Below the pieces are notes generated by a model, which saw nothing but the letters and a program-made list of their open reading frames with translations, did not search any database and was not told the origin of the DNA. Position numbers and translations under genes: made by a program. Of a DNA stretch of 25,755 nt, positions 5,887 to 25,755 are shown piece after piece; positions within the stretch are counted from its first letter, which is position 1; each line of letters begins with the position of its first letter. The stretch comes from a virus: UHGV virus genome UHGV-0287771; one strand, written 5' to 3'.

Positions 5887-6189
5887 CCATGTAGGCATTA
5901 CAAAGCCTATCTACGGGTGGGCTTGATAATGAAACCGGAGTTAATTTCTGGTCACTAATTAACGACAGTACAGCGAAACAACCCAAGCCAGTAAGTGGGG
6001 AAATAACACTGGCAGCCACTGAAAGATGAACCTCCAGCCTTATGGCAAAAAAGATTCTTTGTGGTGGCGGACTGATGGAAAGACATCGGTTATTGCAGAG
6101 GCCATTCAATGAATGGTCTCGACAATGGCTTATACCCTACACGGGATAACTTAACTGATATCCCTTTTAACGGATAAACAGAGCCAACA

Positions 6190-6432
6190 ATGGCAGAGAT
6201 TATTCCCATGACTGAAGAACAGAAATTCCAGTTAGAGCTTTACAAGCTGGTCATGAACCAGAACGCAGCCGCAGAGGAAGCATTTCAATTCATCGGCACT
6301 GACGCGTTGAAGCTTGAGCTATTCAAAATTCACTTCCAGTCAGGCGGCGCTAATTCAGATATCACGACCCGCACAATCGAAGCGGTGCGTAAATCGAAGG
6401 AAGCGTTAGACCTGTTCACCACCGGAGCATAA
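6190..6432 (+). CDS. hypothetical 80-aa protein immediately upstream of small terminase
   Basis: ORF whose stop at 6430-6432 is 2 nt before the TerS ATG; predicted helical, no family recognised. Confidence 0.5.
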   Translation: MAEIIPMTEEQKFQLELYKLVMNQNAAAEEAFQFIGTDALKLELFKIHFQSGGANSDITTRTIEAVRKSKEALDLFTTGA

Positions 6433-6434
6433 AC

Positions 6435-6875
6435 ATGGCGCGCCCAACAAAGTATCAAGAGGCGTATGCCGAACAGGCACGCAAACTGTGCTTGCTGGGC
6501 TACACCGATGCAGAGCTTGCTGATTTCTTCGAAGTCAGTGAGTCAACTATTAACAAGTGGAAGCTTGATTATCCTGAGTTTTCGGAGTCCATAAAAAAGG
6601 GTAAGGCCGTCGCTGATGCAGAAGTTAGTGACCGTCTTTATCAACGCGCTATGGGCTTCGTGGCTCCAGACATCGATATTCGTGTTATTGAAAACAGAAT
6701 TGTCGAAACTCCGCTTGAGAAGTATTACCCGCCTGATACAACTGCCGCCATCTTCTGGCTTAAGAACCGACAGAAGGATAAATGGCGCGACAAGGTTGAT
6801 CACGAGCTAACAGGCAAAGACGGCGGCGCAATCCAGATTGAAACATCACCGATGAGCACTCTATTCGGAAAATGA
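6435..6875 (+). CDS. terminase small subunit
   Basis: 146 aa with N-terminal HTH-like segment (YTDAELADFFEVSESTINKWK); ATGA overlap with the large terminase start; position. Confidence 0.7.
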   Translation: MARPTKYQEAYAEQARKLCLLGYTDAELADFFEVSESTINKWKLDYPEFSESIKKGKAVADAEVSDRLYQRAMGFVAPDIDIRVIENRIVETPLEKYYPPDTTAAIFWLKNRQKDKWRDKVDHELTGKDGGAIQIETSPMSTLFGK

Positions 6876-8287
6876 CCTCGATTAATCCTATCTTTGAACC
6901 GTTCATTGAGGCGCATCGCTACAAAGTCGCCAAAGGCGGTCGAGGTAGCGGTAAATCATGGGCAATTGCGAGGCTGCTTGTTGAGGCGGCGCGTCGGCAG
7001 CCTGTGCGTATTCTCTGCGCTCGTGAACTGCAAAACAGTATCAGCGATTCGGTAATCCGGTTGCTTGAAGACACCATAGAGCGTGAAGGGTATTCGGCTG
7101 AGTTTGAAATTCAGCGTTCAATGATTCGTCATCTCGGAACGAATGCTGAATTCATGTTCTACGGCATCAAAAACAACCCTACGAAGATTAAATCGCTCGA
7201 AGGCATTGATATCTGCTGGGTGGAAGAAGCGGAAGCGGTAACGAAGGAATCATGGGATATCCTGATACCAACCATCCGTAAGCCATTTTCCGAAATATGG
7301 GTGAGCTTTAACCCGAAGAACATCCTCGACGATACCTATCAGCGATTCGTTGTAAATCCTCCCGATGATATTTGTCTGCTGACGGTGAACTACACCGACA
7401 ACCCGCATTTTCCTGAAGTTCTCCGTCTGGAGATGGAAGAGTGTAAACGCAGAAATCCGACACTGTATCGTCACATCTGGCTTGGTGAGCCAGTAAGCGC
7501 AAGTGATATGGCAATCATCAAACGTGAATGGCTTGAAGCCGCAACCGATGCGCACAAGAAACTCGGATGGAAAGCGAAAGGCGCGGTTGTTTCTGCACAT
7601 GACCCGTCAGATACAGGGCCAGATGCTAAAGGTTATGCATCGCGCCACGGTTCGGTAGTTAAACGCATTGCCGAAGGTCTGCTGATGGACATCAACGAGG
7701 GCGCTGATTGGGCTACTTCGCTAGCGATTGAAGACGGCGCTGACCATTACCTGTGGGATGGTGATGGTGTTGGTGCCGGGCTACGCAGACAGACAACGGA
7801 AGCGTTCTCCGGCAAGAAAATCACCGCCACGATGTTCAAGGGCAGCGAATCGCCATTCGATGAAGATGCTCCGTATCAGGCCGGAGCATGGGCTGATGAA
7901 GTCGTACAGGGTGACAACGTTCGCACTATTGGTGATGTGTTCCGCAATAAGCGAGCGCAATTCTATTACGCGCTGGCTGATAGGCTGTATCTGACATATC
8001 GGGCGGTTGTTTACGGTGAGTATGCAGACCCCGACGACATGCTGAGTTTCGACAAAGAAGCGATAGGCGAGAAGATGCTGGAGAAGCTGTTTGCAGAACT
8101 GACGCAGATTCAGCGCAAATTCAATAACAACGGGAAGCTGGAGCTTATGACTAAGGTCGAAATGAAGCAGAAGCTCGGTATTCCATCTCCTAACCTGGCT
8201 GATGCGCTGATGATGTGTATGCATTGCCCGGAGTCGGCTGCGCAACCCGACTATTCCAGTTACTCAATTCCTTGTGGTGTAGGTTGA
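6872..8287 (+). CDS. terminase large subunit (ATPase + nuclease), Sf6/P22-like size
   Basis: 471 aa; Walker A motif KGGRGSGKS near the N-terminus; Walker B-like ICWVEEAE; followed directly by the portal gene. Confidence 0.9.
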   Translation: MTSINPIFEPFIEAHRYKVAKGGRGSGKSWAIARLLVEAARRQPVRILCARELQNSISDSVIRLLEDTIEREGYSAEFEIQRSMIRHLGTNAEFMFYGIKNNPTKIKSLEGIDICWVEEAEAVTKESWDILIPTIRKPFSEIWVSFNPKNILDDTYQRFVVNPPDDICLLTVNYTDNPHFPEVLRLEMEECKRRNPTLYRHIWLGEPVSASDMAIIKREWLEAATDAHKKLGWKAKGAVVSAHDPSDTGPDAKGYASRHGSVVKRIAEGLLMDINEGADWATSLAIEDGADHYLWDGDGVGAGLRRQTTEAFSGKKITATMFKGSESPFDEDAPYQAGAWADEVVQGDNVRTIGDVFRNKRAQFYYALADRLYLTYRAVVYGEYADPDDMLSFDKEAIGEKMLEKLFAELTQIQRKFNNNGKLELMTKVEMKQKLGIPSPNLADALMMCMHCPESAAQPDYSSYSIPCGVG

Positions 8288-8288
8288 T

Positions 8289-10487
8289 ATGGCAGAAAAA
8301 AAGATGACTGACTGGCATCGCAAGGTGCTGTGCAACTTTGATAATGCCTGGTCAGCAACGCAGGATATGCGTGAGCAGATTATTGAGGCTCAACGTTTCG
8401 TCCGGGTGTCCGGCGCACAGTGGGAAGGCAGCACAAACGCTGGTTACTCATTTGATGAAGGCAGGTTTGAGCATTACCCGCGCTTTGAACTGAATAAGAT
8501 TGCCCGTGAATGTGATCGCATCATTGGCGAGTATCGACAGAATCGCATCAGCGTTAAATTCAGGCCGAAGGACGATAAGGCATCGGAAGCGTTAGCCGAA
8601 AAGATGAACGGCAAATTCCGCGCTGACTATCAGGAAACATCCGGTGGCGAAGCGTGTGATAACGCATTTGATGATGCTGTAACGGGCGGATTCGGTTGTT
8701 TCCGCATGTGTGCCGATTACGAAGATGAAATGGATCCGAGTAACGAGCAGCGACGCATCAGCCTTCTTCCTGTTTACGACCCAGCGACATGCGTCTTCTT
8801 CGATCAGGACAGCAAGCAATATGACCGCTCTGATGCTATGTGGGCTATGGAAATGTTCTCCATGACGCCCAAAGCGTTCGAGGCTGAATACCCTGATTCC
8901 ATCGCTGCAAGCCTTTCTCGTGATGACACTGGCACTCAATATGACTGGTCAACGCCTGACGCCATCTATGTTGGACGTTACTACGAAGTCCGCATAGAGA
9001 AGGTGAAGCTCACGGCGTGGCGTAACCCTGTTAGCGGAGAAACGGCAATCTATGATGAAGAGCAAATCAAAGATATTGTCGACGAGCTGACCGATGGTGC
9101 ATTCGAACTGATTGGCGAGCGAACGGTGAAGAAACGCCGAGTTTATTGCGGTCTTCTGTCTGGCGCTGAATGGCTGGAAGAACCGAAGCGTATTCCGGGC
9201 GAACATATTCCTCTCATCCCGGTATATGGGCGTCGTTCATTTGTTGATAATCAGGAGCGAATCGAAGGCCACGCAGCAAAAGCGATGGATGCACAGCGTC
9301 TTGAGAACCTGATGGTTTCCATGATTGCAGATAATGCTACTCAGGCTGGCGGTGATGGCATTCCTATCGTGGATGTTGATTTCATTCCCGGTCCATTAAT
9401 GAATCACTGGGCAGAGAGGAATAAGAAAAGACCTGCAGTTCTTCCCATGACCAGCAAGAAGGACAAAAACGGAACGGTCATTTCAGAAGCTCAGGTTGCT
9501 GGCTGGACACCTCCGACACAAATGCCTCCTGCTCTTGCCGGGCTATTGCAGTACACCGGAACTGCTATTCAGCAAATTACAGGCGCGTCGCAGCTTGAGA
9601 ACATGCCGAGCAACGTCGCTACTGATACCGTTGATAGCATCTTTAACCGGATGGATACGCAGTCCTATATCTACATGGACAACATGGCTAAATCCATGCG
9701 TCGCGCTGGCGTTGTGTGGCTTTCTATGGCGCGTGAAGTCTATGGCAGCGATACGCCGATGCGTATCGTTAATGAGGACGGCAGCGATGACGTGGCGCTG
9801 ATGACTGGTGAAGTGATTGACCGTCAGACAGGGCAGGTTATCGCGCTTAACGACCTTTCGCAGGGTAACTATGAAGTGACTGTCGATGTTGGTCAGTCGT
9901 TCGCTACTCGCCGTGATGCAACGGTTAAGTCGTTACTTTCCATGCTGGCACTTATCCCGCCAGGAACGCCGAAGCATGACCTTGTATCGTCGATGATTCT
10001 CGACAATATGGACGGCGAAGGGATGGAGGACCTTAAAGAATACAACCGCAATCAGTTGCTTCTGTCTGGCGTTATCAAGCCGAGAACGCCAGAAGAGCAG
10101 CAAATGGTTGAGCAGGCGAAACAACAACAGGCCAGTCAGCCAGATCCGGCTATGGTTGCTGCGCAAGGTCAGCTTCTTGCTGGTCAGGCTGAATTGCAGA
10201 AAGCGCAGAACGAACAGGCAGCCATTCAGGTTAAAGCATTCCAGGCACAGACTGATGCTCAGGTTGCAGCGGCAAATGTTGTGAAAATCCTCGCATCTGC
10301 CGATAGCCAGCAGAAATCTGATATCCGCGAGGCTCTGAAACTGCTCGGACAGTTCCAGCAACAGCAAGGAGACAATGCCCGTGCTGATGCAGAGCTTGTC
10401 CTGAAAAGTCAGGCACAGGGCCATGCGCAGCGCATGGACATCAGCAGCATCCTGCAAAAACCAACTCAGCAACAACCACAGCAGTAA
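8289..10487 (+). CDS. portal protein (P22 gp1-like)
   Basis: 732 aa; segments VKKRRVY...GEHIPLIPVYG and the C-terminal Gln-rich helical barrel (AMVAAQGQLLAGQAELQKAQNEQ...QRMDISSILQK) match recalled P22 portal. Confidence 0.9.
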   Translation: MAEKKMTDWHRKVLCNFDNAWSATQDMREQIIEAQRFVRVSGAQWEGSTNAGYSFDEGRFEHYPRFELNKIARECDRIIGEYRQNRISVKFRPKDDKASEALAEKMNGKFRADYQETSGGEACDNAFDDAVTGGFGCFRMCADYEDEMDPSNEQRRISLLPVYDPATCVFFDQDSKQYDRSDAMWAMEMFSMTPKAFEAEYPDSIAASLSRDDTGTQYDWSTPDAIYVGRYYEVRIEKVKLTAWRNPVSGETAIYDEEQIKDIVDELTDGAFELIGERTVKKRRVYCGLLSGAEWLEEPKRIPGEHIPLIPVYGRRSFVDNQERIEGHAAKAMDAQRLENLMVSMIADNATQAGGDGIPIVDVDFIPGPLMNHWAERNKKRPAVLPMTSKKDKNGTVISEAQVAGWTPPTQMPPALAGLLQYTGTAIQQITGASQLENMPSNVATDTVDSIFNRMDTQSYIYMDNMAKSMRRAGVVWLSMAREVYGSDTPMRIVNEDGSDDVALMTGEVIDRQTGQVIALNDLSQGNYEVTVDVGQSFATRRDATVKSLLSMLALIPPGTPKHDLVSSMILDNMDGEGMEDLKEYNRNQLLLSGVIKPRTPEEQQMVEQAKQQQASQPDPAMVAAQGQLLAGQAELQKAQNEQAAIQVKAFQAQTDAQVAAANVVKILASADSQQKSDIREALKLLGQFQQQQGDNARADAELVLKSQAQGHAQRMDISSILQKPTQQQPQQ

Positions 10488-10577
10488 TTAACCCATAACG
10501 TGCAATGGCTGTCTTTATGAGGCCTGGCAACCTATTGCCTTCCGATGGGCTGAACATCGAGTAAACAGGGGTAACAA

Positions 10578-11471
10578 ATGGACCAGATGGCAGAAAACAC
10601 ACCAGAAGTTGAAATCGAAACCGACGCGTCAGAGCAGATTCCTGATGATGCCGAACTGGCTGAAGAAGTCGAAACAGAAGATGGCAGTGAGTCCTCCGGC
10701 AATGATGCAGAGGAAGCTACTGAAACTGATGACGACGAATCAGAACAGGAATTCTACTTTGGTGACGAAAAGCTGGATTCGCCAACCAGCGAAGATGGCG
10801 CAGAGCATGGACTGGTAAAACACCTGCGCAAGACGATTAAAGAGAAAGACCGCGAGCTGAAAGAGCTGATGCGTCAGTCTCAGAAACCCGTCGAGCAGCA
10901 GCCGGTAATCACTCAACCACCGCGAATGCCAAAACTGGATGATGAGGACATCGGTTTCGATGAAGAAATCTACCAGCAACGCATGGCTAAGTGGGCAGAG
11001 GATAACGGCAAGTACCAGCAACAGGAGATGGCTCGCAAGCAGAAGGAGCAGGAGCTTCAGGCTGCCTATCAAGAGCGATTATCCAAATATCAGCAACGTG
11101 TTAAGGCTCTCAAAGTTCCTGGCTATCAGGAAGCTGAGCAGGCCGTACTCGAGGAAATCCCCATCGAGACACAAAACGCGATCTTGTTTGAGTCAGAGAA
11201 GCCGGAAATCGTTGTTCTGGCACTCGGTCGCAACGCTGAACTGCGCAAGCAACTGGCAGAAGCTACCAACCCCGTAGCAATTGGTCGTCTGCTGGAACGT
11301 ATCGAATCGAAGGCCAGAATCATGCCAAAAGCAAAAACCACGGCAGCCACAACCCCGACAGTTAAGGGGAGCAACGGCGCAGTAATCAACAACCTCGACA
11401 AACTGAAAGCCAAGGCGCTGGAAACTGGTGACTGGACGCCGTATTTCGCCGCCAAAAAGGCAAAAAAATAA
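10578..11471 (+). CDS. scaffolding protein
   Basis: 297 aa, very acidic N-terminus, extended coiled-coil character, basic C-terminal tail (AAKKAKK); between portal and coat as in P22 gp8. Confidence 0.75.
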   Translation: MDQMAENTPEVEIETDASEQIPDDAELAEEVETEDGSESSGNDAEEATETDDDESEQEFYFGDEKLDSPTSEDGAEHGLVKHLRKTIKEKDRELKELMRQSQKPVEQQPVITQPPRMPKLDDEDIGFDEEIYQQRMAKWAEDNGKYQQQEMARKQKEQELQAAYQERLSKYQQRVKALKVPGYQEAEQAVLEEIPIETQNAILFESEKPEIVVLALGRNAELRKQLAEATNPVAIGRLLERIESKARIMPKAKTTAATTPTVKGSNGAVINNLDKLKAKALETGDWTPYFAAKKAKK

Positions 11472-11489
11472 CCTATCGGAGCATTAAGC

Positions 11490-12755
11490 ATGCCTAACCA
11501 ATTAGCAAAAGACCTTGAAATCATGTTCGAAAACTACGTTGAAGGCTTTGAGGCCGCCTGCGTAGTTTCCCGTAACGCTAAAAAATTCCGTCCCGGTGAT
11601 ACAGCAATGCAGCGAGCAGGTGATGTTCTGTATCGTCCGCAGCATTACCACATGAACATTGAGGAAGGCCTCGACCTCAGCGGAAAAACGCCTACAGCAC
11701 TGGTTCAGCGCCTTGTTCCTTCTGTGTTCAAGGAGCCGAAAAACATTCTGTACACTCTGGATGCGCGTGAAATGCGTGACCCGGAACATAAAACTGAAGC
11801 TGGTCGCGCCGCAGGTATGCGCCTTGCTGCACAGATTGACTCTGACCTGATTTCCATGGTTACGCAGCGTGCTACTAACGTGATCACAATGTCTGACTCA
11901 ACCACAGGTACGCAGGGCCGTGATTTGTGGAACTGTGCGGCAGGTATTGATGCCACCATGACGGCGATTGGTGTACCGCAGGGTATCAACCGTCGCTCTT
12001 TCTGGAACCCCTTCAACTACAAAGACCTTGCTGGCGAGCTTGGTCACCGTGCCTACGCTCAGGGCGCAACCCTGACAGCATACGAAAAAGCGCAGATCCC
12101 TCCGGTTGCTTCCTTTGATAGCTACAAGACCGATATTTCCGGTCGATTGCCGAAGGCTGCAACAGTTGAAAATACCATTACGCTGGCAGAAGCACCCGCG
12201 CACAAGGTTGAAGCGAAAGATGTTAACGGCATGCCAGTTGATAACCGACAGGGCACGATTAAGATATCTGCTAAATCCTTGCAGGTTGGCGATGCGTTTA
12301 CCATCGCAGGTGTGAATTCCGTACACCAGATCACCAAAGATACCACCGGGCAACCGCAGGTATTCCGCGTTCTGGCAGTAGACACAGCAGGAACCACCGT
12401 AACAATCTCTCCGAAAATTCTGCCGCCTAACAACACGGATGAAGCCAGCCGTCCATATGCAAACGTCGATGCTAATGCGGCAAGTGGCGCAGCAATCACC
12501 GTTCTCAACAAGAATGCCGCACCGGCTAACCTGTTCTGGGCTGATGGTTCTGTTGAGCTGATGTACGGCAAACTGGCGTTCCCGACTGGTCAGGGTCCAC
12601 AGGTAATGACAGCAACCACCGAGCAGGGCGCTACGCTGATCATGTCTTACGCCTTCGACCACATCAAAGGTGTAACCACTGCGCGTTTCACCACCCTGTA
12701 CGGTTGCTCTGTACTTGTTCCTGAATATACGGGCATCGTTATTGCCGGGCAGTAA
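11490..12755 (+). CDS. major capsid (coat) protein, P22 gp5-like
   Basis: 421 aa; segments resembling recalled P22 coat (KKFRPGDTAMQRAGDV vs KKYTPPAASMQRSS; NLFWADGS vs NVFWADDA); strong terminator directly downstream. Confidence 0.85.
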   Translation: MPNQLAKDLEIMFENYVEGFEAACVVSRNAKKFRPGDTAMQRAGDVLYRPQHYHMNIEEGLDLSGKTPTALVQRLVPSVFKEPKNILYTLDAREMRDPEHKTEAGRAAGMRLAAQIDSDLISMVTQRATNVITMSDSTTGTQGRDLWNCAAGIDATMTAIGVPQGINRRSFWNPFNYKDLAGELGHRAYAQGATLTAYEKAQIPPVASFDSYKTDISGRLPKAATVENTITLAEAPAHKVEAKDVNGMPVDNRQGTIKISAKSLQVGDAFTIAGVNSVHQITKDTTGQPQVFRVLAVDTAGTTVTISPKILPPNNTDEASRPYANVDANAASGAAITVLNKNAAPANLFWADGSVELMYGKLAFPTGQGPQVMTATTEQGATLIMSYAFDHIKGVTTARFTTLYGCSVLVPEYTGIVIAGQ

Positions 12756-12762
12756 TTTTGGT

Positions 12763-12785
12763 GGGGCTTCGGCCCCATTTTTATT
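12763..12785 (+). terminator. intrinsic terminator after the coat gene
   Basis: GGGGC-TTCG-GCCCC hairpin (12763-12776) followed by TTTTTATT. Confidence 0.6.
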
Positions 12786-12796
12786 GGGAGAAGACA

Positions 12797-12985
12797 ATGG
12801 CACGAACAATGCTCTATAAGCCTGGCAACATGATCACCTGTGGTCAGTTTGTTGTCGATTACATCATTGTTGATGACGAAGAAGTTAAATCTCACCTGAA
12901 AAAAGGTTGGGTAAAAACTCCTGAAGAAACCGCAACGAAGCAAAAAGTGGCTAAGGCGGAAGAAGATGGCGAAAACGAAGGGTGA
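12797..12985 (+). CDS. hypothetical small protein (62 aa from ATG 12797)
   Basis: SD GGGAGAAG 6 nt upstream of ATG 12797; overlaps the gp4-like start; the ORF-track start at 12758 falls inside the terminator hairpin and is rejected. Confidence 0.4.
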   Translation: MARTMLYKPGNMITCGQFVVDYIIVDDEEVKSHLKKGWVKTPEETATKQKVAKAEEDGENEG

Positions 12986-13427
12986 TCTCGTTCTAAAGGC
13001 TTTACGAAAAGCCGGGCTGTATTCCAATGCCACGTTGACAGATGCTGACCCTCAGGAAATTGAAGATGCCATTAATGACCTCGAAGACATGATGGCAGCA
13101 TGGCAGGCGAAAGGCATCGAACTTGGATATCAGTTTGCTGATACAGAAAACGGCATCATGCCGTTACCTGATGATGATTCCGGTATCCCTGCATGGGCAA
13201 ATGATGGCGTCGCTTTGAAACTCGCTGTGCAAGTGTGCATGGATAACGTCATTCAGCCGTCAGACGCTCTCCTTACCGCTGCTGACAGTGCATATCAGAC
13301 AATCTGCATCGTTTTAACCAAAATACCACCACTTGAGCGGCGAAATGACATGCCTCGCGGTAGTGGTAACAAAAGCGCGTTTACGTGGAATCGGTTTTAC
13401 ATCGAGAAAGATGATCCGAGTACGTGA
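12966..13427 (+). CDS. head completion / tail accessory factor, P22 gp4-like
   Basis: 153 aa; N-terminus TKGDLVLKALRKAGLYSNATLTD...EIEDAINDLEDMMAAW resembles recalled P22 gp4; correct position after coat. Confidence 0.75.
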   Translation: MAKTKGDLVLKALRKAGLYSNATLTDADPQEIEDAINDLEDMMAAWQAKGIELGYQFADTENGIMPLPDDDSGIPAWANDGVALKLAVQVCMDNVIQPSDALLTAADSAYQTICIVLTKIPPLERRNDMPRGSGNKSAFTWNRFYIEKDDPST

Positions 13428-13436
13428 GGTGAATAA

Positions 13437-14855
13437 ATGCCGATTCAGCAACTTCCACTCATGAAAGGCGTCGGCAAAGACTTTCGAAACGCCGACTATA
13501 TCGACTATCTGCCAGTGAATATGCTGGCTACACCCAAAGAAATCCTGAACAGCAGCGGATATCTTCGCTCATTCCCGGGCATAGCCAAACGTTCTGATGT
13601 GAACGGCGTATCGCGAGGCGTCGAGTACAACATGGCGCAGAATGCTGTTTATCGCGTGTGTGGTGGCAAGCTGTATAAGGGCGAAAGCGAGGTTGGTGAT
13701 GTTACCGGAAGTGGTCGCGTATCAATGGCGCATGGTCGAACATCACAGGCGGTAGGCGTTAATGGTCAACTGGTCGAGTATCGCTATGATGGCACGGTTA
13801 AAACCGTCTCAAACTGGCCTGCAGATAGCGGATTCACTCAGTATGAGTTAGGTTCGGTTCGTGACATTACGCGCTTACGTGGGCGTTATGCGTGGTCAAA
13901 AGACGGAACTGATTCATGGTTTATCACTGACCTTGAAGACGAATCGCATCCTGACCGTTACAGCGCACAATATCGTGCCGAGTCTCAGCCGGACGGTATC
14001 ATCGGTATCGGGACATGGCGAGACTTCATCGTCTGCTTTGGTTCATCGACGATTGAATATTTTTCCCTGACTGGCGCAACCACCGTTGGTGCTGCTTTGT
14101 ATGTCGCACAGCCATCACTGATGGTGCAAAAAGGCATCGCCGGGACTTACTGCAAAACGCCGTTTGCTGATTCGTATGCGTTCATCAGCAATCCGGCAAC
14201 GGGTGCGCCGTCTGTATACATCATCGGCTCCGGTCAGGTGTCACCAATCGCCAGCGCGAGCATTGAGAAAATCCTCCGCTCCTACACTGCTGATGAACTG
14301 GCTGATGGTGTGATGGAATCGCTGCGATTTGATGCTCATGAGTTGCTGATTATCCACCTTCCGCGCCATGTTCTCGTGTACGACGCATCTTCAAGCGCCA
14401 ATGGTCCGCAATGGTGTGTACTGAAAACAGGCCTGTATGACGATGTGTACCGCGCTATCGACTTCATTTACGAAGGCAATCAAATAACGTGCGGCGATAA
14501 GCTGGAGTCCGTGACCGGGAAATTGCAGTTCGATATCAGCAGCCAGTACGACAAGCAACAGGAACACCTGCTGTTTACTCCACTGTTCAAAGCGGATAAC
14601 GCCAGAGTGTTCGACCTTGAGGTTGAATCGTCAACTGGCGTTGCGCAGTATGCTGACCGCCTTTTTCTCTCTGCAACCACTGACGGCATCAATTACGGAC
14701 GTGAGCAGATGATTGAGCAGAATGAACCGTTCGTTTACGACAAACGCGTTTTGTGGAAGAAAGTAGGGCGCATCAGGAAAAACATTGGCTTCAAATTGCG
14801 CGTTATCACGAAGTCACCTGTCACTCTGTCTGGTGCTCAGATAAGGATTGAGTAA
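13437..14855 (+). CDS. tail accessory factor / tail hub protein, P22 gp10-like
   Basis: 472 aa, same length as recalled P22 gp10 and in the same syntenic position. Confidence 0.75.
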
Positions 14856-18047: not shown

Positions 18048-20441
18048 ATGGCTAATTACCGTGATTTGTTAGAGCAGGCTGGCGCACGTTACGGTGTGCC
18101 AGAAGGGTTGATGACTGCACTGGGTGCCAAGGAGTCTTCTTACAACCCTGCCGCAGTAAGCTCCGCCGGGGCTGTAGGATTGACTCAGGTCATGCCTGGG
18201 ACATGGCGTGATATGGGTTATACCGATGAGCAAATGCAAAACCCCGAATATCAGGCTGACGCTGGCGCGCGCTATCTGGCAAAGATGTACCAGCAGTTTG
18301 GTAACTGGCGTGACGCTCTTCAGGCTTATCATGACGGTCCCGGCAACGTTATGAAGGCAAAGCGTGGTGAATATACGCCAGGACCTGAAGGCCGCGGTTA
18401 CGTTGATGATCGCTTTGCTCAATGGGCGGGTGACCCGGTGACAGACTCAACAGTCGAACAGCGCGCCACCTCTGCAAAGGTACATCCTCAGCAAGACCCT
18501 AACAACCCGTTTGCACAACTGGAAGCACAGTCATCCGAACAAGTATCGGCATCAGGCGTGCAGTCAGACCCAAATAATCCATTTGCTCAGATTGAGCAGC
18601 AGGCAGCCAGTCAGCAGCCACCTCAACCCGTAAGTTCTGTCGCACCGAAACCTGTTCAGCAGCAAGGCGGAATAATGTCTGACCTTGGTAATGGACTTGC
18701 TGAAACCGGGCGCGGCTTACTACAGGCAGGAATCAACGTAGCGAACATACCTGCTGAACTCACTGATGCTGTAACAAGCGCGGCGGCTTGGGCTGGCGGT
18801 AAACTCGGCATTGGCGATGGTACATATCAACCAGCACCACGAGTAACAACGCAGGGATTAGAGCAGGACTTTGGCCTTCAGCAAGGCGCGCTGACTCCAC
18901 AAACGACAGAGGGAAGGGTATTTGCCGAAGCATTGCCTTACCTCACTCCTGCTGGCGTTGAGAGAGCGGCAACACAGGCACCAACACTTGCTGGTCGAAT
19001 TGCTCAGGGGGCAACTCGCCTTCTAGCAGAAAACGCAGTTGGTTCACTTGCTGCAAACAGTGCGAAAGATGATGCGGAAGCACTCGCCACCGATTTAGGC
19101 GTTGGTGTGCTGGCTGGCGGTGCTATTAACGCTGCCGGACGTGGATTAGGTGCTGCTTATCGTGGTGTTCGTGGTTCGATAGCACCAGAAGCTCAACAGG
19201 CTATCAGGTTTGCAGAGCGTGAAGGAGTTCCTCTGCACACCACAGACCTGTTACAGCCTACTTCCCGCGCCGGGAAAATGGCGCAGACTACAGCAGAAAA
19301 TATCCCCCTGGCTGGCACAAGCGGAATGAGAGCAACGCAACAGGAAGCGAGAATCCAGTTGGTGCAGAGATTTGCCGATAAATTCGGTGAGTATGATCCA
19401 GCGGTTGTTATTGACAGCCTTAAAGCGAAAACATCAGGAATTCGTCGTGCCGCCGGTAATCGACTGGAGCAGGTTCAGAATGCTATGGCTGGAGTAAACA
19501 TTCAGCCTGCGCGAGCAATTCAGCAGATTGATACAGAAATATCTAATCTGCAGAAGCTTGGTAAGGTCGCCGATAACGAGACTATTTCAAAACTTCAGTC
19601 CTATCGTGATGAGCTTGTTCGCAATGCTGGTCCTGATGGTCCGGTAAATCTGGATTTGAAGCAATTAAGCGATCTGCGCAGCCAGTTCAGAATGGACGTG
19701 AAGGGGGAACGACCAGTGTTGCCAAACCGTTCCGATGCTGCCATTCAGCGCGTTTACAAGGCGATGACAGACGATATCAATGGTGCCATTGGTCAGAATC
19801 TTGGCAACGATACTCTCCGTAAATATCAGCAGGCCAATGCCGTCTACGCTGACGAAGCGGCGAAACTAAAGAATACCAGGCTGAAGAATGTTCTCATGAA
19901 AGGCGACCTGACGCCGGAAGTTGTCAACAACATGCTATTCAGCAAGAACAAATCGGAAATTAAGACGCTGTATAACTCAGTTGGTCGTGTTGGCAGGGCG
20001 CAAATGCGCAATGGCATCATTGGAAAGGCGATGGAGAAATCAGGTGGTTCCCCTGACCAGTTCCTTCGGCAGCTTAACATCCTGCAAAACCAGACTGGCA
20101 TCACATTTAAGGGGCAGGACGCTGCTTATCTGAAAGGATTAAAAAACTATCTGCAATCCACGCAGCAGGCTGCAAAAGCAGCAGTAACAACACCCACAGG
20201 GCAGCAAACTATCCCGTTCATTATTGGGTATGGGACGGCAATGAACCCGGCGACAACTGGCGCAGCAGTAAGCTACGGACTTCTTACTCGCGCCTATGAG
20301 AGCGAGCCATTCAGAAATGCAATGCTCCGAATGGCAAACACCCCACGCGGATCTACAGCGTTTGAGAAAGCCATGCAGCAAGCGCAAAAAGCGATTAATG
20401 CACTGACGCAGGGTGCTAAGTCTGATTCGTTGTCAGAATAG
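18048..20441 (+). CDS. DNA ejection/internal protein gp16-like with N-terminal lytic transglycosylase (SLT) domain
   Basis: 797 aa; N-terminal SLT signature (GLMTALGAKESSYNPAAVSSAGAVGLTQVMPGTW...YHDGPG); last gene of the ejection-protein trio. Confidence 0.75.
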   Translation: MANYRDLLEQAGARYGVPEGLMTALGAKESSYNPAAVSSAGAVGLTQVMPGTWRDMGYTDEQMQNPEYQADAGARYLAKMYQQFGNWRDALQAYHDGPGNVMKAKRGEYTPGPEGRGYVDDRFAQWAGDPVTDSTVEQRATSAKVHPQQDPNNPFAQLEAQSSEQVSASGVQSDPNNPFAQIEQQAASQQPPQPVSSVAPKPVQQQGGIMSDLGNGLAETGRGLLQAGINVANIPAELTDAVTSAAAWAGGKLGIGDGTYQPAPRVTTQGLEQDFGLQQGALTPQTTEGRVFAEALPYLTPAGVERAATQAPTLAGRIAQGATRLLAENAVGSLAANSAKDDAEALATDLGVGVLAGGAINAAGRGLGAAYRGVRGSIAPEAQQAIRFAEREGVPLHTTDLLQPTSRAGKMAQTTAENIPLAGTSGMRATQQEARIQLVQRFADKFGEYDPAVVIDSLKAKTSGIRRAAGNRLEQVQNAMAGVNIQPARAIQQIDTEISNLQKLGKVADNETISKLQSYRDELVRNAGPDGPVNLDLKQLSDLRSQFRMDVKGERPVLPNRSDAAIQRVYKAMTDDINGAIGQNLGNDTLRKYQQANAVYADEAAKLKNTRLKNVLMKGDLTPEVVNNMLFSKNKSEIKTLYNSVGRVGRAQMRNGIIGKAMEKSGGSPDQFLRQLNILQNQTGITFKGQDAAYLKGLKNYLQSTQQAAKAAVTTPTGQQTIPFIIGYGTAMNPATTGAAVSYGLLTRAYESEPFRNAMLRMANTPRGSTAFEKAMQQAQKAINALTQGAKSDSLSE

Positions 20442-20531
20442 CCTTTCAAACACCAGGAACGTGCAAAAACCAAATATGTAGAACGCGAGGTTTATCGTAT
20501 CCCTCTGCATAGGCGATACCTTTGCTGATTG

Positions 20532-21017
20532 TTATCTGATGTTACTGCTACTGTTGCATGTTACCGTGTTTTCAAATCCTGAATTGCAGTTTGTATATGT
20601 GTCAACGCGTGTTGGGTAAGGTTGAGTTATAACAGGCTGGCGCGCTTTTTGCTCAATTGCTTGCATAGTGTTTACAGCCTGATAATTCAATAAAGCCTGC
20701 TGGAATGCTTGGCTTTGTGCTATTTGTTGGGCTTGTTCTTGGCTTTGTAATTGAACATAAAGATTCTGAAGCTCAAGTCTTGCCTGTGCGTCACTTATCT
20801 TGCCTTCATCGACACCTTGCCCGAGCATCTTTGCAGCAAGGACATACAGCTTAGGTGTTGGTGCTGATGCCATGCGTGAGTCGTTTTTCACACTGGCATC
20901 AAGGCAATTAGCCATATCGCTAAGCTTTTGATAGCGTTGTTCGCAACTTGCTTGATAGTCACTTACTTTTGCGCATCCAACCAGCAGAATCGGGATAATT
21001 AACAGTGATTTTTTCAT
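20532..21017 (-). CDS. lipoprotein (candidate superinfection-exclusion/moron protein), 161 aa
   Basis: Strong SD AAGGAGAG 8 nt upstream of ATG (minus strand, 21017); signal peptide with lipobox MKKSLLIIPILLVGC; Gln-rich helical body; in the slot of the P22 sieA/immI region. Confidence 0.7.
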   Translation of the reverse strand: MKKSLLIIPILLVGCAKVSDYQASCEQRYQKLSDMANCLDASVKNDSRMASAPTPKLYVLAAKMLGQGVDEGKISDAQARLELQNLYVQLQSQEQAQQIAQSQAFQQALLNYQAVNTMQAIEQKARQPVITQPYPTRVDTYTNCNSGFENTVTCNSSSNIR

Positions 21018-21087
21018 ATGGTTAACTCTCCTTAGTTTTTCACAGGATATCATGAAGGCAATACCATTTTAGCCGGAAACTAGATTT

Positions 21088-21357
21088 CTATGTTTCCTTT
21101 TTATTATTGCTATACATGGTCTTAAGCGTATCAAAGACAATTTTCTTAACTATCTCAGATTGTTGTTCTGCCATACGCTCTGCATCGTCAATGTAAACAG
21201 ATGCAGAGCTTTGTTTAGCCAATGATTCTTCAATCGCTGCAATTATCTCTGAGTTCAGAGACCTGTTATTCATCTTCGCACGCTGTTTAATTTTCGCGTG
21301 GAGTTCATGCGGAAGTCTCAAGTGAAACTGCGCCTCGTCGTATTTGCTGTACATCAT
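21088..21357 (-). CDS. mnt: Mnt-like ribbon-helix-helix repressor (Arc/MetJ family)
   Basis: Translation matches recalled P22 Mnt along its length (RSLNSEII ... DDAERMAEQQSEIVKKIVFDTLK vs RSMNSELL ... NDAERLADEQSELVKKMVFDTLK); start placed at the Met preceded by an SD-like GTGAGG. Confidence 0.8.
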   Translation of the reverse strand: MMYSKYDEAQFHLRLPHELHAKIKQRAKMNNRSLNSEIIAAIEESLAKQSSASVYIDDAERMAEQQSEIVKKIVFDTLKTMYSNNKKET

Positions 21358-21489
21358 TGATGCCTCACCAGTTGGGTGGAATGGCATCGTAAAACCTACT
21401 GGATAAATCAACAATCGTACCACTTCGGTATGTAACTATAGCTTACCGCAGCTCTGCTGTGGGGATTAATTTCGCCTGGAGCACATCAA

Positions 21490-23763
21490 ATGACTGATAC
21501 CAATTACCTGGTCTCTATGCCGTCCACTCCTTTTTCGGCGCCACGAGCATTTAAGTCAGTGGCGAACGGGAAAATCTACATCGGAAACCCTGACACTGAT
21601 CCGGTAAATCCTGCCAACCAAATCCCGGTATATGTCGTTAATGAGGATGGCTCCGAGGTTCAGGTTTCACAGCCAATCATCATTAACGCCGGCGGCTTTC
21701 CGGTCTATAACGGCCAGATTATGAAGTTCATCACGAAACAGAACTTCAGTATGGCGGTCTATGACGCATATGGAGCGCAGCAATTTTATTGGCCCGATTT
21801 ATCTCGCATAGATCCAGATACAGCATACAACACCATCATAAATAATATTGGCGCACAAGATGGACTGAAGTATGTTGGTCAGTGCTCAGATTTAACAGCT
21901 CTCAGGGCTATTGAGCCAACCGTTTCTAACCAGCGAATTAGTGTCGCTGCATACGCTCCCGGGTGGGCCTCGCTGACAGGTGCGCCTGTTGGCGGTGGTG
22001 AGTTTTATTATGACCCCAATGATACGACATCTTCTGATGACGATATTTTTATTTTTGTAACGGCTGGCGGTAAGCGCTGGAAGCGTGCTTGCTCCGGCAA
22101 AAAAATCTGCCTGGAATGGAAAGGGGTAAGGCCTGGTGATGATGCAGCTCCGGCATTAAATGCTATCGGCACTTACCTGAATAACAAGGCCATCGCAAAA
22201 GGTACTGTTTCCGGGCTTCCTCGAGTGCATGTCGGCGCAGGCGTTTACCCCCTGTCAGATACTGTCAACCTCACATACGCATTTCGCATAAAGGCGGTTG
22301 GTAATGTAGAATTTACGACAACGGACTGGGATAGCACGGTTGCAAAAGATATTTTCACTATCGCTAACCCTGCAAATATGCCTGCAGTTCCTGACAAGGG
22401 GTATGCAAGCGGTGACCCGTGGCTTAATGGTTCTGATGGCACCATTTTAATCACTGGTCCCGTCTATGATGCTGCGGTCACAAACAATGTGGTTGGCGTT
22501 GGTGTGGGAAACCTCGTCACCGGGCGGACGCCCGTTCGTGGTAATGTGATGCATGGCGTTTCAATCCGTTACTGTGGCAGTGCGATTTACCTGCGCATGC
22601 GTCGTCTGTACCTGACGTCATTTAGTCATGTTCACTGCGAGCTTAATAACACACATATTACCTGTCCTAACCAGTCAGGCACCGAAGACTCCGGGGAGCG
22701 TATTGCATTTCATGAGTGCGTTTTTGGCGGGTGCAGGAATCAGCACGTTTATGTATATATGACACCGGCTCTGCATTTTGAATCATGTTCATTCGACTTT
22801 GCTCAGGGGAGCGGTATTTATCTGGATGGGATATCTGAGTATGGTCTTTTTTCATTCACAAACTGCCATTTTGAGAACTTCAATAACTACCTTATTAATG
22901 CCCAGACCGGTTCTCGGGTCACTCTTCTGATTACTAATTGTGATGTATTCAATAACAGCCAGACTACGCCGGTTACCGCAGCATCTGCTTCATCCCCTTC
23001 CCGTCCTATGTTTAATCTTGCCAACGGCGGGAATGTGGTTATTAACGGATTTAAACTGAACTATTCATATCGACCTCTTGGTTCATTGAATATGCTGGTT
23101 TCGCCCGAGACACAAACTGCAGATACAAGAACACGAGTATCAGTTAACGGACTGACGGCGGGTGATAAGTCAATGACACCGTGCCCCGCAGCAGCGCATA
23201 TCATGAACCGATCAAATGATTTTAGCGGGGAAACTGTGGGTTCCACAATTACCAGCAAAATCGCATACACAACAACACATGTTCAGCCAGTACAGGACAT
23301 TGCAAGTTCGTGGGGCTCAGGGATGTCCGCATCTGTTGTCGCTGACGGTAGCACAAAGGGTTTGCAGATGGTGTCAGCAGACAATACTAACTTCGGTTAC
23401 ATTCAGCCAAAAACTGCGATTCCTGTTTCGCCAGGGCGCGCCTACTCAGCATATTTCAGTATCCAGAAGTTGCTGGCGGCTGGCGGAATCAACTGGTCTG
23501 TGAGCTATCTGTGGTACGACAAAGACGGGAACCTGTTATCTAACGATAGAGCTCTGTCAGGTCGGTTTTCCAGTGTATATAACGACACGACATTGCCGGG
23601 ATATTCAACAGATGCTACAGCAAACGGTAATAGAAAGTTGAGCACAACCATGTGCGTACGCATTGCGCCCCCCGGCGCTGCTTACTGTCGCCCATACTTT
23701 AGTGTGTCGTCGTTTACTGGAACTATAAATATCGTCAATTTTTTGATGTGGGAGTATCAGTAA
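21490..23763 (+). CDS. tailspike protein (P22 gp9-type N-terminal head-binding domain with divergent receptor-binding body)
   Basis: First ~110 aa resemble recalled P22 tailspike N-terminus ([35 protein letters not shown]...); remainder is beta-rich (Asn/Gly/Thr/Ser-rich) without recognised identity. Confidence 0.85.
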
Positions 23764-23981
23764 TGAATATCTATCTTGAGCCAGGCACCAGCAATGTGTT
23801 TGTTCTCTCCCCGGAATCTCCGGGGGAGGCGTACGAACACATTGGCGAGGTCAGTGATGATGTATCGCTGTCCCCTGTCATTCCTGATGAAATCTATGAA
23901 GTAATAGCGGCGTATAACGAAAGCCTTTTATCTACTGGGCTTGAGCTGAACATGAGAGGGTCATATTCCTCCTCCAATTGA
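23763..23981 (+). CDS. hypothetical acidic protein, 72 aa, translationally coupled to the tailspike
   Basis: ATG 23763 overlaps the tailspike stop (TAATG); acidic composition; no family recognised. Confidence 0.45.
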   Translation: MNIYLEPGTSNVFVLSPESPGEAYEHIGEVSDDVSLSPVIPDEIYEVIAAYNESLLSTGLELNMRGSYSSSN

Positions 23982-24019
23982 TAGATATAACCTGTCTTGA
24001 TCAGTCAATTCACAACATA

Positions 24020-24039
24020 TACTGTATATAAAAACAGTA
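24020..24039 (+). promoter_or_regulatory. LexA operator (SOS box) overlapping a likely promoter
   Basis: TACTGTATATAAAAACAGTA: CTGT-N8-ACAG with AT-rich spacer, a near-perfect match to the E. coli LexA box consensus TACTG(TA)5CAGTA; 15 nt upstream of the next start codon. Confidence 0.75.
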
Positions 24040-24054
24040 TTGTCGGGTGTGGAT

Positions 24055-24294
24055 ATGATAAGACGTAACGCCATAGCGGAGGCTTTCAGAGCCTCCATTT
24101 CTATAAATCCTAAAGGTTATCAATACCTTTACACGGATTCTTTCATCTCCGAACTACAGCGGAGGGGTATCCATTTCTCAGAGAAGGAGGCTAACAACTG
24201 GATATCGAGAGAGCAGACGTACTTTGTCGACAAGACGCCGGACCATAGCGAAAACAGGTTGTGGATGCTGGCGAATATGGGGAGGGTGATCTAA
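24055..24294 (+). CDS. hypothetical protein, 79 aa, first gene of the LexA-box operon
   Basis: ORF directly downstream of the LexA box; stop overlaps the start of the next gene (TAATG); function not recognised. Confidence 0.5.
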   Translation: MIRRNAIAEAFRASISINPKGYQYLYTDSFISELQRRGIHFSEKEANNWISREQTYFVDKTPDHSENRLWMLANMGRVI

Positions 24295-24611
24295 TGGGCT
24301 TTCCTTCACCCGCGACGGATTACGTTGAGCAGCGACTGTCCGTTAACTCGATCTGCAATGTCGGCCCTAACACCCGCGTTTTCGAAAGGGATGGCGGTTA
24401 TGTTGTGCTGGATATTTCCCTGAAGCCAAAGCAGGGTAGTCAGGTTCTGATCCAGCACGGCGGCGGTACGGAGCTTGCCACGCTGAGAGGAAAGTCACTG
24501 ATAACCGAAGACGGCGAAGCGATCGAGGGAGATGCTCTCGACGATGTCACTGTCATCGGTGTCGTGACGTTTACTATCTGCGATGTTCGTTCTGATAATT
24601 CTATTATTTAA
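24294..24611 (+). CDS. UmuD'-like (S24 LexA/UmuD-family fold) protein, apparently lacking the catalytic Ser
   Basis: Starts M-GFPSPATDYVEQR, matching the UmuD/MucA motif GFPSPAADYVEQR just after the UmuD self-cleavage site; GGGGAGGG SD 7 nt upstream; no G-D-S-M serine motif seen by eye, Lys retained in RGKSL. Confidence 0.6.
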   Translation: MGFPSPATDYVEQRLSVNSICNVGPNTRVFERDGGYVVLDISLKPKQGSQVLIQHGGGTELATLRGKSLITEDGEAIEGDALDDVTVIGVVTFTICDVRSDNSII

Positions 24612-24622
24612 CTGGGGTATAT

Positions 24623-25288
24623 ATGGCGCTGAAGCTATTAGCCAATAATAACGCAAAGAGTGTTCTCGCTGCGGGTATTAGCGCGTCCGCTACCGTTATT
24701 ACCGTGGGGTCGGGTGCAGGTGCTTTATTCCCCGCGCCGGTATCGGGAGAAAGCTATTTCAAATTAACGGTAACCGACGCCGCAACGAAAACAATCAACG
24801 AAATTATGCATGTCACATCTGTATCTGGTGACGTGATGACGGTAATTCGTGGTCAGGAAGGAACCACGGCGCGCGTATGGTCAACGAATGACATTGTCGC
24901 AAATTTAATGACCGCCGGCTCATTGTTATCGTTCCTGCAGATCAGCAATAACCTGTCAGAAATTAAAGATGCCGGTGAGGATGCGGTAAATGAAGCCCGT
25001 TATAACCTCGGAATATCTGATTCCTCTGGTTTTGTCGGGCGTTCTCTTGGCGCTCCAAAAGCGTTCTATGCAAACGGCACCTATACGCGCTCTCCTCTGG
25101 CCCGTTATGCAAAAGTAACGTTGGTCGGAGGTGGCGGCGGCGGTGGCCGGGCGGGTTCTCAGGCCGGTATTGCTGGCGCAGCTCCCGGATCCGGTGGTGG
25201 TGGCGCGTATGACCTTGGGTTTACCGGTACGGCATTTACCGGTGGTGATGGTGCTACTGGCATGGCGATCGTGGAAGAATTCGCGTAA
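24623..25288 (+). CDS. Gly-rich protein, 221 aa; N-terminal part reminiscent of phage fibre N-termini; possibly a truncated gene
   Basis: ORF 11 nt after the UmuD'-like gene; C-terminal poly-Gly/Gly-X stretch (VGGGGGGGRAGSQAGIAGAAPGSGGGG...); followed by ~430 bp without a convincing ORF before the att core. Confidence 0.5.
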   Translation: MALKLLANNNAKSVLAAGISASATVITVGSGAGALFPAPVSGESYFKLTVTDAATKTINEIMHVTSVSGDVMTVIRGQEGTTARVWSTNDIVANLMTAGSLLSFLQISNNLSEIKDAGEDAVNEARYNLGISDSSGFVGRSLGAPKAFYANGTYTRSPLARYAKVTLVGGGGGGGRAGSQAGIAGAAPGSGGGGAYDLGFTGTAFTGGDGATGMAIVEEFA

Positions 25289-25717
25289 TGGCTTACACTC
25301 CTGCACGACCATCGATGTAATCAGCCCACCACTGCATCATCTACCTGCGCTTATCGAGATACTGAGCATGGTTGTAAATCCCACGCACAGATCCGCCGTT
25401 GGCATGAGCGAGTTGCACTTCGATAGTTTCGTGATGCACCAAGTGATCAAAGTCATGAAATTTAACATCCAAGCCTCCATCGATCGATACTTGCGGTAGT
25501 TGATAAGGAAAAACTATGGTACACAAAGCGTTGCACTGGATTGCAAGGCTTTGTGCTCTTCTGTGGATGTGTGGCTACATGTTTGAAGATCGTTGTGCCG
25601 CATTTGTGACATACACATGACAACATCATGCATCAACTTTCTGTTTGTGCCATCAACTATAGCTTAGTGAATGCGGTTAATGCTTGCTAAAACAGATAGT
25701 TATGATTGGTGCTACAG

Positions 25718-25755
25718 ATTCGTAATGCGAAGGTCGTAGGTTCGACTCCTATTAT
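25718..25755 (+). other. 3' portion of a tRNA-Thr(CGU)-like gene (anticodon loop, T-arm); candidate attR core, truncated by the window end
   Basis: ATTCGTAATGCGAAGGTCGTAGGTTCGACTCCTATTAT contains the anticodon-loop sequence with CGT and a canonical T-arm GGTTCGACTCC; the 5' half of a tRNA is absent upstream (sequence diverges before 25718). Confidence 0.6.

Follow-up and report, generated by a model that had tools for sequence, protein, structure and literature searches.

The 25,755-nucleotide (nt) stretch of the virus genome UHGV-0287771 analysed here, referred to below as the window, contains the tailspike gene of a P22-like prophage. We consider it likely that the product, of 757 amino acids (aa), is a functional mosaic tailspike, in which the head-binding domain of the phage chassis is fused to an imported glycosidase cassette with a Klebsiella-type capsule as its probable target. 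Residues 1-113 would constitute a chassis-specific docking domain that has co-evolved with the virion module. From residue 124 onward, a PF27114 neck, a beta-helix, a C-terminal beta-sandwich and a linked 72-aa open reading frame (ORF) would form a cassette that circulates among Klebsiella and Escherichia coli prophages on many other anchors. An earlier note, made from the letters of the window, had described the protein as a P22-type N terminus joined to an unrecognised body. Its chimeric nature is borne out by the nucleotide homologies, which are P22-like up to 21817 and those of the cassette from 21859; the body itself proves to have recognisable relatives.

Tailspike gene and predicted architecture

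The gene, its ribosome-binding site and the predicted parts of its product are as follows.

21478-21481, plus strand: Shine-Dalgarno sequence GGAG, 8 nt 5' of the tailspike ATG, read directly from the sequence
21490-23763, plus strand: tailspike gene, 757 aa, ATG start, stop codon included (ORF list; Pfam Head_binding and Beta_helix)
21499-21819, plus strand: P22-type head-binding (virion-docking) domain, aa 4-110 (PF09008, E=1.7e-47)
21818-21858, plus strand: interdomain linker and putative recombination junction, aa 110-123; the linker peptide is aa 114-123, and neither parent is matched in nucleotides
21859-22134, plus strand: conserved neck domain, aa ~124-215 (PF27114 Phage_tail_beta region), with the DGLK-x-VGQC breakpoint motif at its start
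22207-23169, plus strand: right-handed parallel beta-helix, aa ~240-560, putative catalytic and receptor-binding domain
22696-22698, plus strand: codon of E403 (SGER motif), candidate catalytic nucleophile, invariant and aligned with Glu267 of the K2-2 tailspike protein (TSP)
22795-22797, plus strand: codon of D436 (CSFDF motif), invariant third carboxylate in the alignment of body homologues
22873-22875, plus strand: codon of E462 (CHFE motif), candidate general acid/base, invariant and aligned with Glu323 of the K2-2 TSP
23281-23760, plus strand: C-terminal all-beta domain (beta-sandwich, resembling a carbohydrate-binding module, CBM), aa ~598-757 (AlphaFold2 strands 598-755, confidence score pLDDT mostly >90)

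The ORF list gives the 757-aa frame at 21490-23763 exactly as the earlier note had it, and the resemblance of the first ~110 residues to P22 gp9 is confirmed by the PF09008 match to aa 4-110. Over aa 4-111, identity is 68% to Sf6 gp14 and 60% to P22 gp9. Beyond this domain, the sequence of the body matches neither the P22 nor the Sf6 tailspike body, and the PDB sequence matches to these two proteins end at about aa 113-124. The spike is also longer than those of P22 (666-667 aa) and Sf6 (623 aa; both lengths from PDB chains), as had been claimed; the HK620 spike turned up in no search, and the direct comparison covers P22 and Sf6. Homology to the beta-helix of the P22 gp9 endorhamnosidase was not found by Foldseek either, with TM-scores of 0.16-0.21 to 2xc1 and 8u1o.

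Precomputed families for an identical protein are PF09008, PF27114 and PF13229, of which PF27114 comes from that listing without coordinates or score, the model being absent from the local Pfam copy. A local Pfam scan gave a generic Beta_helix match to aa 354-492. Asparagine, glycine, threonine and serine together make up 34.6% of aa 120-757, and the beta-helix that the earlier note suspected from this composition is supported by both Pfam and AlphaFold2. PHROGs matches to the spike lie chiefly in the N terminus and neck, the longest (phrog_4217) extending to aa 437. NCBIfam has no model for the tailspike, for the 72-aa ORF or for a 221-aa ORF further downstream. The neck stretch alone is covered at 40-53% identity by many database matches; its profile matches include Depo32, DpK2 and the neck of CBA120 TSP2, and R139, D183 and R196-R199 are near-invariant within it.

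An AlphaFold2 monomer model, for which 41 homologues served as input, has a mean pLDDT of 83 and exceeds 90 for most of aa 130-757. In it, residues 109-121 form a helix in the linker, 129-207 a small beta domain and 220-237 a capping helix, followed by a long beta-helix at 245-556 and a C-terminal domain, entirely of beta structure, at 598-755. The last of these is matched in Foldseek by the beta-sandwiches CBM16 (2zey/2zex) and CBM4-2 (1k42), in agreement with the C-terminal beta-sandwich that had been predicted. The head-binding domain (aa 1-110, 21490-21819) is poorly modelled, with pLDDT <50, though it is 60-68% identical to solved structures; monomer-only prediction of a trimer-interdigitated domain and a shallow alignment are probably responsible.

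Junction, imported cassette and linked small ORF

The 5' end of the tailspike gene is 94% identical in nucleotides to that of Klebsiella phage phiKp_30 over window positions 21444-21817, and this homology ends at 21817 (aa 109). The second block of homology starts at D124, at the conserved DGLK motif. The 42 nt between the two blastn blocks encode the linker. Two features define the imported segment.

21859-23905, plus strand: imported cassette, comprising body aa 124-757 and the first ~47 codons of the small ORF, at 89-91% nt identity
23763-23981, plus strand: 72-aa ORF, the body-linked accessory gene, whose ATG overlaps the tailspike stop and which contains the 3' crossover at ~23905

The cassette is 89-91% identical in nucleotides to tail-fibre genes of Klebsiella variicola (contig L001), E. 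coli (L008) and an IMG/VR locus (L006). The flank of L008 is 100% identical to the E. coli pdeF-ppx-ppk region, which identifies it as a genuine E. coli contig. In a Klebsiella tailspike (P0037), an N terminus like that of the window continues through 'DPDTAY' (aa 113) and is followed by an unrelated body. Recombination where the neck begins, in the conserved DGLK codons, would most likely account for the fusion.

At its 3' end, the imported block extends 142 nt beyond the spike stop codon into the 72-aa ORF, whose product is acidic and whose translation is coupled to the end of the tailspike gene. In every context examined (the window, L001, L008 and the prophage loci L009 and L011 described below), a homologous small ORF lies 3' of this body, and searches of Pfam, PHROGs and NCBIfam assign the 72-aa product to no family. 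It may be an assembly partner specific to this body, comparable to U of phage Mu.

A misassembled contig was considered as the source of the chimera and rejected, since the identical protein is present on two independent contigs and 757-aa versions at 94% identity occur in E. coli assemblies at NCBI. These other versions, annotated as E. coli 'phage tailspike protein', are 94% identical overall, with aa 1-301 essentially identical. One of them (L009) belongs to a P22-like prophage at a different chromosomal site, adjoining mlaA and fadL, with the same downstream ORFs and with virion genes homologous to those for P22 coat, gp4, gp10, gp7 and gp16. On the strength of these 94%-identical versions, including the one at another site, the chimeric gene is an established E. 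coli lineage and not a one-off.

Distribution of the body and selection

Protein homologues were drawn from a collection of 5.8 billion proteins, in which the window protein falls in a 201-member cluster at 90% identity. Receptor-binding proteins of 629-929 aa, without PF09008, from Klebsiella and E. coli prophages match the body at 93-95% identity, and the body is found on at least eight N-terminal anchors other than the P22 type. Its forms are listed by length, anchor and representative.

757 aa, P22 Head_binding anchor: window protein, P0277, P0280
873/874 aa, Phage_T7_tail anchor: P0007
929 aa, Tail_spike_N-containing anchor: P0272
793 aa, unnamed anchor: P0003
821 aa, unnamed anchor: P0010
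847 aa, unnamed anchor: P0001
781 aa, unnamed anchor: P0278
723 aa, unnamed anchor: P0274
629 aa, anchorless: P0271
816 aa, tenth form, with the body at ~66% identity: P0026

Compared with the Klebsiella and E. coli copies on non-P22 anchors, the window body shows a ratio of non-synonymous to synonymous substitution rates (dN/dS) of 0.07-0.09 at dS 0.37-0.50, and is under purifying selection. The helix core (aa 300-500) is almost without change, and about one third of the substitutions fall in aa 116-150, beside the junction.

Outside these prophage proteins, relatives are few. When the gene was compared with cultured phages by megablast, only its first 328 nt were matched, in phiKp_30, and tblastn of the body against cultured phages gave nothing above 33% identity. 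The body is absent from all 5,426 complete E. coli genomes searched, the first 314 nt of the gene alone being matched in two of them. GTDB species representatives yielded no relative of the body, and IMG/VR a single locus.

Invertible segments in related Klebsiella prophages

The body also occurs in Klebsiella prophages within an invertible segment of the type known from Mu (G segment) and P1 (C segment). In one lambda-like prophage with a GpJ homologue (L011, locus 7371-12732), and with the same layout in a second of this kind (L012), a 629-aa copy of the window-type body stands head-to-head with a receptor-binding protein of 803/835 aa bearing a different, K60-type body, from a class in which some enzymes are shown to be active on K60. 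A serine recombinase like Hin and Gin lies alongside the segment, and an inverted repeat of 43 nt, 86% complementary, brackets 4,266 nt. The repeat encodes 'LR-x-NLGSGDGLK', and its core is TTCnnnTAAACCnnGGTT, which we take to resemble the gix and hix sites. The anchorless 629-aa copies begin exactly at the DGLK boundary, with M or V as the start. They were at one point considered to be deletion relics; this was rejected, as they are the silent halves of invertible segments.

The opposite state is present in two further loci, L013 (7001-12827) and L014, where a 929-aa receptor-binding protein carries the window-type body in frame and a 652-aa K60-type body is silent. The repeat, its spacing and the recombinase are the same. 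Each alternative body keeps its own small (65-aa) downstream ORF, that of the K60-type body being different from the homologue of the 72-aa ORF. Both orientations of the segment thus occur in nature, in different genomes. This supports deployment of the window-type body on virions, a specificity of that body differing from K60, and the DGLK-coding start of the neck as a natural point of exchange.

In the window there is no gix-like site, and the annotated part (18048-25755) contains neither a recombinase nor an alternative body; the fusion there is fixed. No inversion is mentioned in the PLoS Biology paper in which these proteins were cloned (PMC13123978), and a literature search found no description of such an inversion switch for Klebsiella depolymerases.

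A broader interpretation can be offered tentatively. The body may be a depolymerase for a capsule that the characterised enzymes do not cover and that rare E. coli and Klebsiella lineages have in common, mobile over at least nine N-terminal contexts, with the E. coli fusion as a fixed derivative of a phase-variable system. The body and its dedicated small partner gene would then form a universal cassette found in two genera, for which the DGLK codons at the beginning of the neck would serve as a portable point of crossover. In lambda-like and other Klebsiella prophages, the same point would be the site of a Gin/Hin-type invertase that toggles between K60 and a second tropism.

Characterised relatives and fold

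The closest characterised relatives in sequence are the K11-specific depolymerases K11 gp17 and K64-1 S1-1, which are 27.9-28.3% identical over 98-99% of aa 116-757 (E 1e-46 to 1e-48). Both are placed in class 1B, 'pouf-like', of DepoCatalog, a collection which also documents that near-identical folds may have different K specificities. The K11 specificity is not transferable to the window body, because the identity is too low and specificity shifts within one fold class. Among the 129 enzymes of DepoCatalog there is no close homologue of the body.

In Foldseek, the best solved matches to the model are the K2-2 TSP (8IQ5/8IQ9; E=3e-22, TMt 0.76-0.78), CBA120 TSP4 and Kp7 gp52 (7XYC). The fold is common to the K2-2 TSP, Kp7 gp52 and CBA120 TSP2/4, and the model is superposable on 8IQ5 and 7XYC. 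In sequence, the K2-2 TSP was reached by a profile search, direct searching of the PDB giving N-terminal and neck matches only.

The description of the body as unrecognised has to be given up at the level of family and fold, though no characterised enzyme is close: it carries Beta_helix and PF27114, has homologues at 93-95% identity and K11 depolymerase relatives at ~28%, and shares the fold of the K2-2 TSP, Kp7 gp52 and the CBA120 spikes. The earlier note fares better on specificity, which it held to be unpredictable and possibly new. No characterised tailspike with high identity over the full length was found; characterised enzymes are at most ~33% identical, DepoCatalog lacks a close homologue, and the cloned construct 1723_62 gave no protein. 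On activity, which it had also thought unpredictable, it was partly wrong: the alignment of E403 and E462 with Glu267 and Glu323 of the K2-2 TSP allows a hydrolase mechanism to be proposed.

Probable substrate

The substrate is most likely, as judged from sequence relationships, a capsule of Klebsiella type (group 1, Wzy-dependent), found in both genera and, within E. coli, in rare strains. A capsular target is suggested because the nearest functional relatives are the K11 capsule depolymerases. There is also a precedent among P22-like phages: phiHS3 and phiHS4, whose tailspikes are of Klebsiella type, depend on the Klebsiella-like K47 capsule of E. coli HS (bioRxiv 10.64898/2026.05.19.726188).

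The capsule concerned is probably not K60, since in Klebsiella prophages the body alternates with a K60-type body in the invertible segments. The body has been cloned as construct 1723_62 (629 aa) from K. variicola KSB1_10B, a KL60 host, with no protein obtained; the K60-active enzyme of the same prophage, 1723_59, is a different body; and the window-type body is not among the predictors from the genome-wide association study of that dataset (PMC13123978). If the 72-aa product is indeed an assembly partner, its absence might account for the failed expression of the body alone.

It is unlikely, though worth weighing, that the body is instead an endoglycosidase for an O-antigen of lipopolysaccharide common to E. 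coli and Klebsiella, like those of P22, Sf6 and CBA120. P22-type tailspikes classically cut O-antigen, and among the top structural neighbours of the body are CBA120 TSP2 and TSP4, whose targets are lipopolysaccharide O-antigens. The presence of the body in both genera requires a shared glycan, of which the polymannans found both in E. coli O8/O9 and in Klebsiella O5/O3 would be an example. The K60 capsule of K. variicola KSB1_10B (KL60, O5) is a target that the partner body already serves. However, K11 gp17, K64-1 S1-1 and the best structural match, the K2-2 TSP, are all capsule depolymerases; the body falls into one similarity network with enzymes specific for K11, K56, K60 and K64; and phiHS3 and phiHS4, which are P22-like relatives, exploit a Klebsiella-like capsule when they infect E. 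coli. A capsule remains the preferred substrate.

Proposed catalysis

Among 38 homologues of the body, the most distant at 22% identity, G402, E403, D436 and E462 alone are invariant. A profile made from this alignment places E298 and E354 of the K2-2 chain opposite E403 and E462. The spacing of E298, D309 and E354 in that chain equals that of the published triad Glu267/Asp278/Glu323, with an offset of 31. The K2-2 TSP is a retaining glycosidase whose active site lies between subunits, and the exchanges E267A and E323A abolish its activity (PMC10936425). The K60-type body of L011 retains the three motifs in the forms AGER, CSCDY and CHIE.

From these alignments we infer that the body is a retaining endoglycosidase. 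The beta-helix would bind a surface polysaccharide and cleave it by retaining glycoside hydrolysis, with E403 as nucleophile and E462 as acid/base across the subunit interface, as in the K2-2 TSP, and with D436 assisting. The spike is presumably trimeric on the tail hub, and cleavage would open a path for the virion through the glycan layer.

Action as a polysaccharide lyase, by beta-elimination at uronic acids, appears improbable. Many Klebsiella capsules contain uronic acids, and the PLoS Biology supplement lists a Pectate_lyase_3 Pfam match for 1723_62 (PMC13123978). Nevertheless, the sole invariant side chains are the carboxylates of E403, D436 and E462, two of which align with a proven hydrolase pair. 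R505 is the only near-invariant basic residue of the helix, with no invariant Arg, Lys, His or Tyr seen that could serve as the base, and neither the local Pfam scan (generic Beta_helix only) nor NCBIfam gave a lyase family.

It is very improbable that the spike is a non-functional relic, whether misassembled after the swap or part of a defective prophage, or a glycan binder without cleavage: the anchorless homologue was not expressed in E. coli, substitutions relative to the Klebsiella copies crowd the junction and the window shows only the right arm of the prophage, but the ORF is intact with a good Shine-Dalgarno sequence and translationally coupled downstream genes, the low dN/dS holds despite the high dS with all catalytic-motif residues kept, a second P22-like prophage, at another site, has kept the chimera at 94% identity, and the virion module is complete and ~95% identical to that of isolated phages.

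Several observations weigh against the proposal of a capsule-cleaving mosaic spike. Characterised enzymes are at most ~33% identical to the body and the structural template ~16% (15-17%), which leaves profile alignment and conservation as the basis of the catalytic assignment. Asp278 of the K2-2 TSP is aligned with a glycine ('VFGGC') in the window protein, and D436 is without a K2-2 counterpart. The AlphaFold2 model is monomeric and hence lacks the intersubunit geometry of E403 and E462, and its N-terminal domain is below pLDDT 50. The one recombinant attempt at the body, 1723_62, yielded no protein. The target glycan would have to be rare in E. coli, because none of the 5,426 complete genomes has the body. 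Finally, classic P22-like spikes and those of CBA120 cleave O-antigen and not capsule.

Prophage context and host

The window covers the right arm of a P22-like prophage. Positions 1-21817 are ~95% identical in nucleotides to phiKp_30 (Lederbergvirus), with similarly close matches to the E. coli phages vB_EcoP-720R6, CUS-3, Huey and Sf101 and to many E. coli prophages, and the full virion module is in place at ~95% identity to isolated phages. Upstream of the spike are an ejection protein with an SLT domain, a lipoprotein-like ORF and a divergent Arc/Mnt repressor; downstream are four small ORFs and then the 3' part of a tRNA-Thr.

21088-21423, minus strand: divergent gene for an Arc/Mnt-type repressor (Pfam Arc E=1.2e-14, Repressor_Mnt E=9.8e-13), in an immI-like context
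25718-25755, plus strand: attR, the 3' part of tRNA-Thr (thrW) and right end of the prophage, 100% match to the tRNA-Thr of E. coli PM22

Window positions 20235-25755 are found at 100% identity in a metagenomic contig (L003), which runs on into an island that matches the thrW-proA region of E. coli PM22 at 100%. Because this flank and attR both match PM22, the prophage is integrated at thrW of an E. coli-type chromosome. We take thrW to be the classic attachment site of P22. A Klebsiella host was considered, the best phage match being a Klebsiella phage, but was rejected as the chromosomal flank and attR are of E. coli type.

Beyond attR (L003 positions 5484-13529), the island encodes a PD-(D/E)XK nuclease (Pfam PDDEXK_GAPS4, a family name that comes from an anti-phage system), an MltR-family regulator and HigA; the PM22 version of the thrW island additionally has tra/trb genes and an integrase. 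Within the window, the last ejection protein (18048-20441, plus strand; 797 aa) has an N-terminal SLT lytic transglycosylase domain (Pfam E=2.9e-25), and its counterpart in L009 is a 665-aa P22_gp16-type protein for which no SLT match is listed. Between the ejection protein gene and the mnt-like gene, a 173-aa ORF (20532-21053, minus strand) has a lipoprotein-type signal (…LLIIPILLVGC) and matches phrog_6067, a family of unassigned function (E=8.5e-110). It is a candidate superinfection-exclusion lipoprotein, in what we take to be the position of sieA in P22.

Two ORFs in the moron position between the tailspike cassette and attR (24040-24294 and 24261-24611, plus strand) match phrog_3893, of unassigned function, and a UmuD-like protein family, phrog_3469 (E=7.5e-47); the gtr O-antigen conversion genes of P22 presumably stand at this position. 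The fourth ORF (24623-25288, plus strand; 221 aa) has a tail-fibre-like N terminus (PHROG tail fibre families, aa 1-160) and a Gly-rich C terminus that matches the final ~50 aa of long tail-fibre proteins, as if the middle of a fibre had been deleted; it is kept 3' of the spike in the second E. coli prophage (L009 13134-13799).

Significance

Mosaic tailspikes, modular receptor-binding proteins and P22-like E. coli phages with Klebsiella-type spikes are already known. The worth of the present case lies in its clean junction, a cassette that crosses genera, an orphan specificity and the lead that it gives to an invertase-driven depolymerase switch. Tailspike bodies set the capsule or O-type that a phage can attack, and are mined as anti-virulence enzymes and for engineered host ranges. 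D124 of the DGLK motif, as a natural graft point between a P22 anchor and a Klebsiella-type depolymerase, could be used in the design of chimeric spikes. The sharing of one receptor-binding cassette by E. coli and Klebsiella phages implies a shared surface glycan and a route of phage traffic between the genera. The body is widespread in Klebsiella lysogens, as its 201-member cluster indicates, yet its specificity is an orphan. If inversion operates, K-type predictions based on prophages would depend on the orientation that happened to be sequenced.

Comparison with known systems

The window spike follows P22 gp9 and Sf6 gp14 in its plan of anchor, linker, beta-helix and C-terminal beta domain, and in the position of its gene near attR, after the ejection proteins and an Arc/Mnt immI-like gene. 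It differs from both in having no sequence similarity past about aa 124, with full-chain TM-scores of only 0.16-0.34, and in an extra PF27114 neck and a CBM-like C terminus; its substrate is probably capsule rather than O-antigen. The neck motif is shared with K11 gp17 and K64-1 S1-1, whose anchors differ from that of the window in using a T7 gp17-type or a jumbo-phage branching system. Unlike the K2-2 TSP and Kp7 gp52, both retaining glycosidases that act on K2 capsule, the window spike has a larger C-terminal domain, and a K2 specificity in common with them is unlikely. Construct 1723_62 has essentially the same body but is anchorless, being the silent copy of an invertible segment, and the retention of a small ORF with each of the alternative bodies recalls the S/U and S'/U' pairs of Mu.

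The phages phiHS3 and phiHS4 ('Hueyvirus') are likewise P22-like and temperate, and fall in one clade with CUS-3, vB_EcoP-720R6, Huey and Sf101, the phages that match the window best in nucleotides. Their tailspikes cluster with Klebsiella phage spikes, although the body is presumably different from that of the window, given their K47 tropism. phiHS3 has a second tailspike gene, whereas the window has only the 221-aa fibre-like ORF besides its single mosaic spike.

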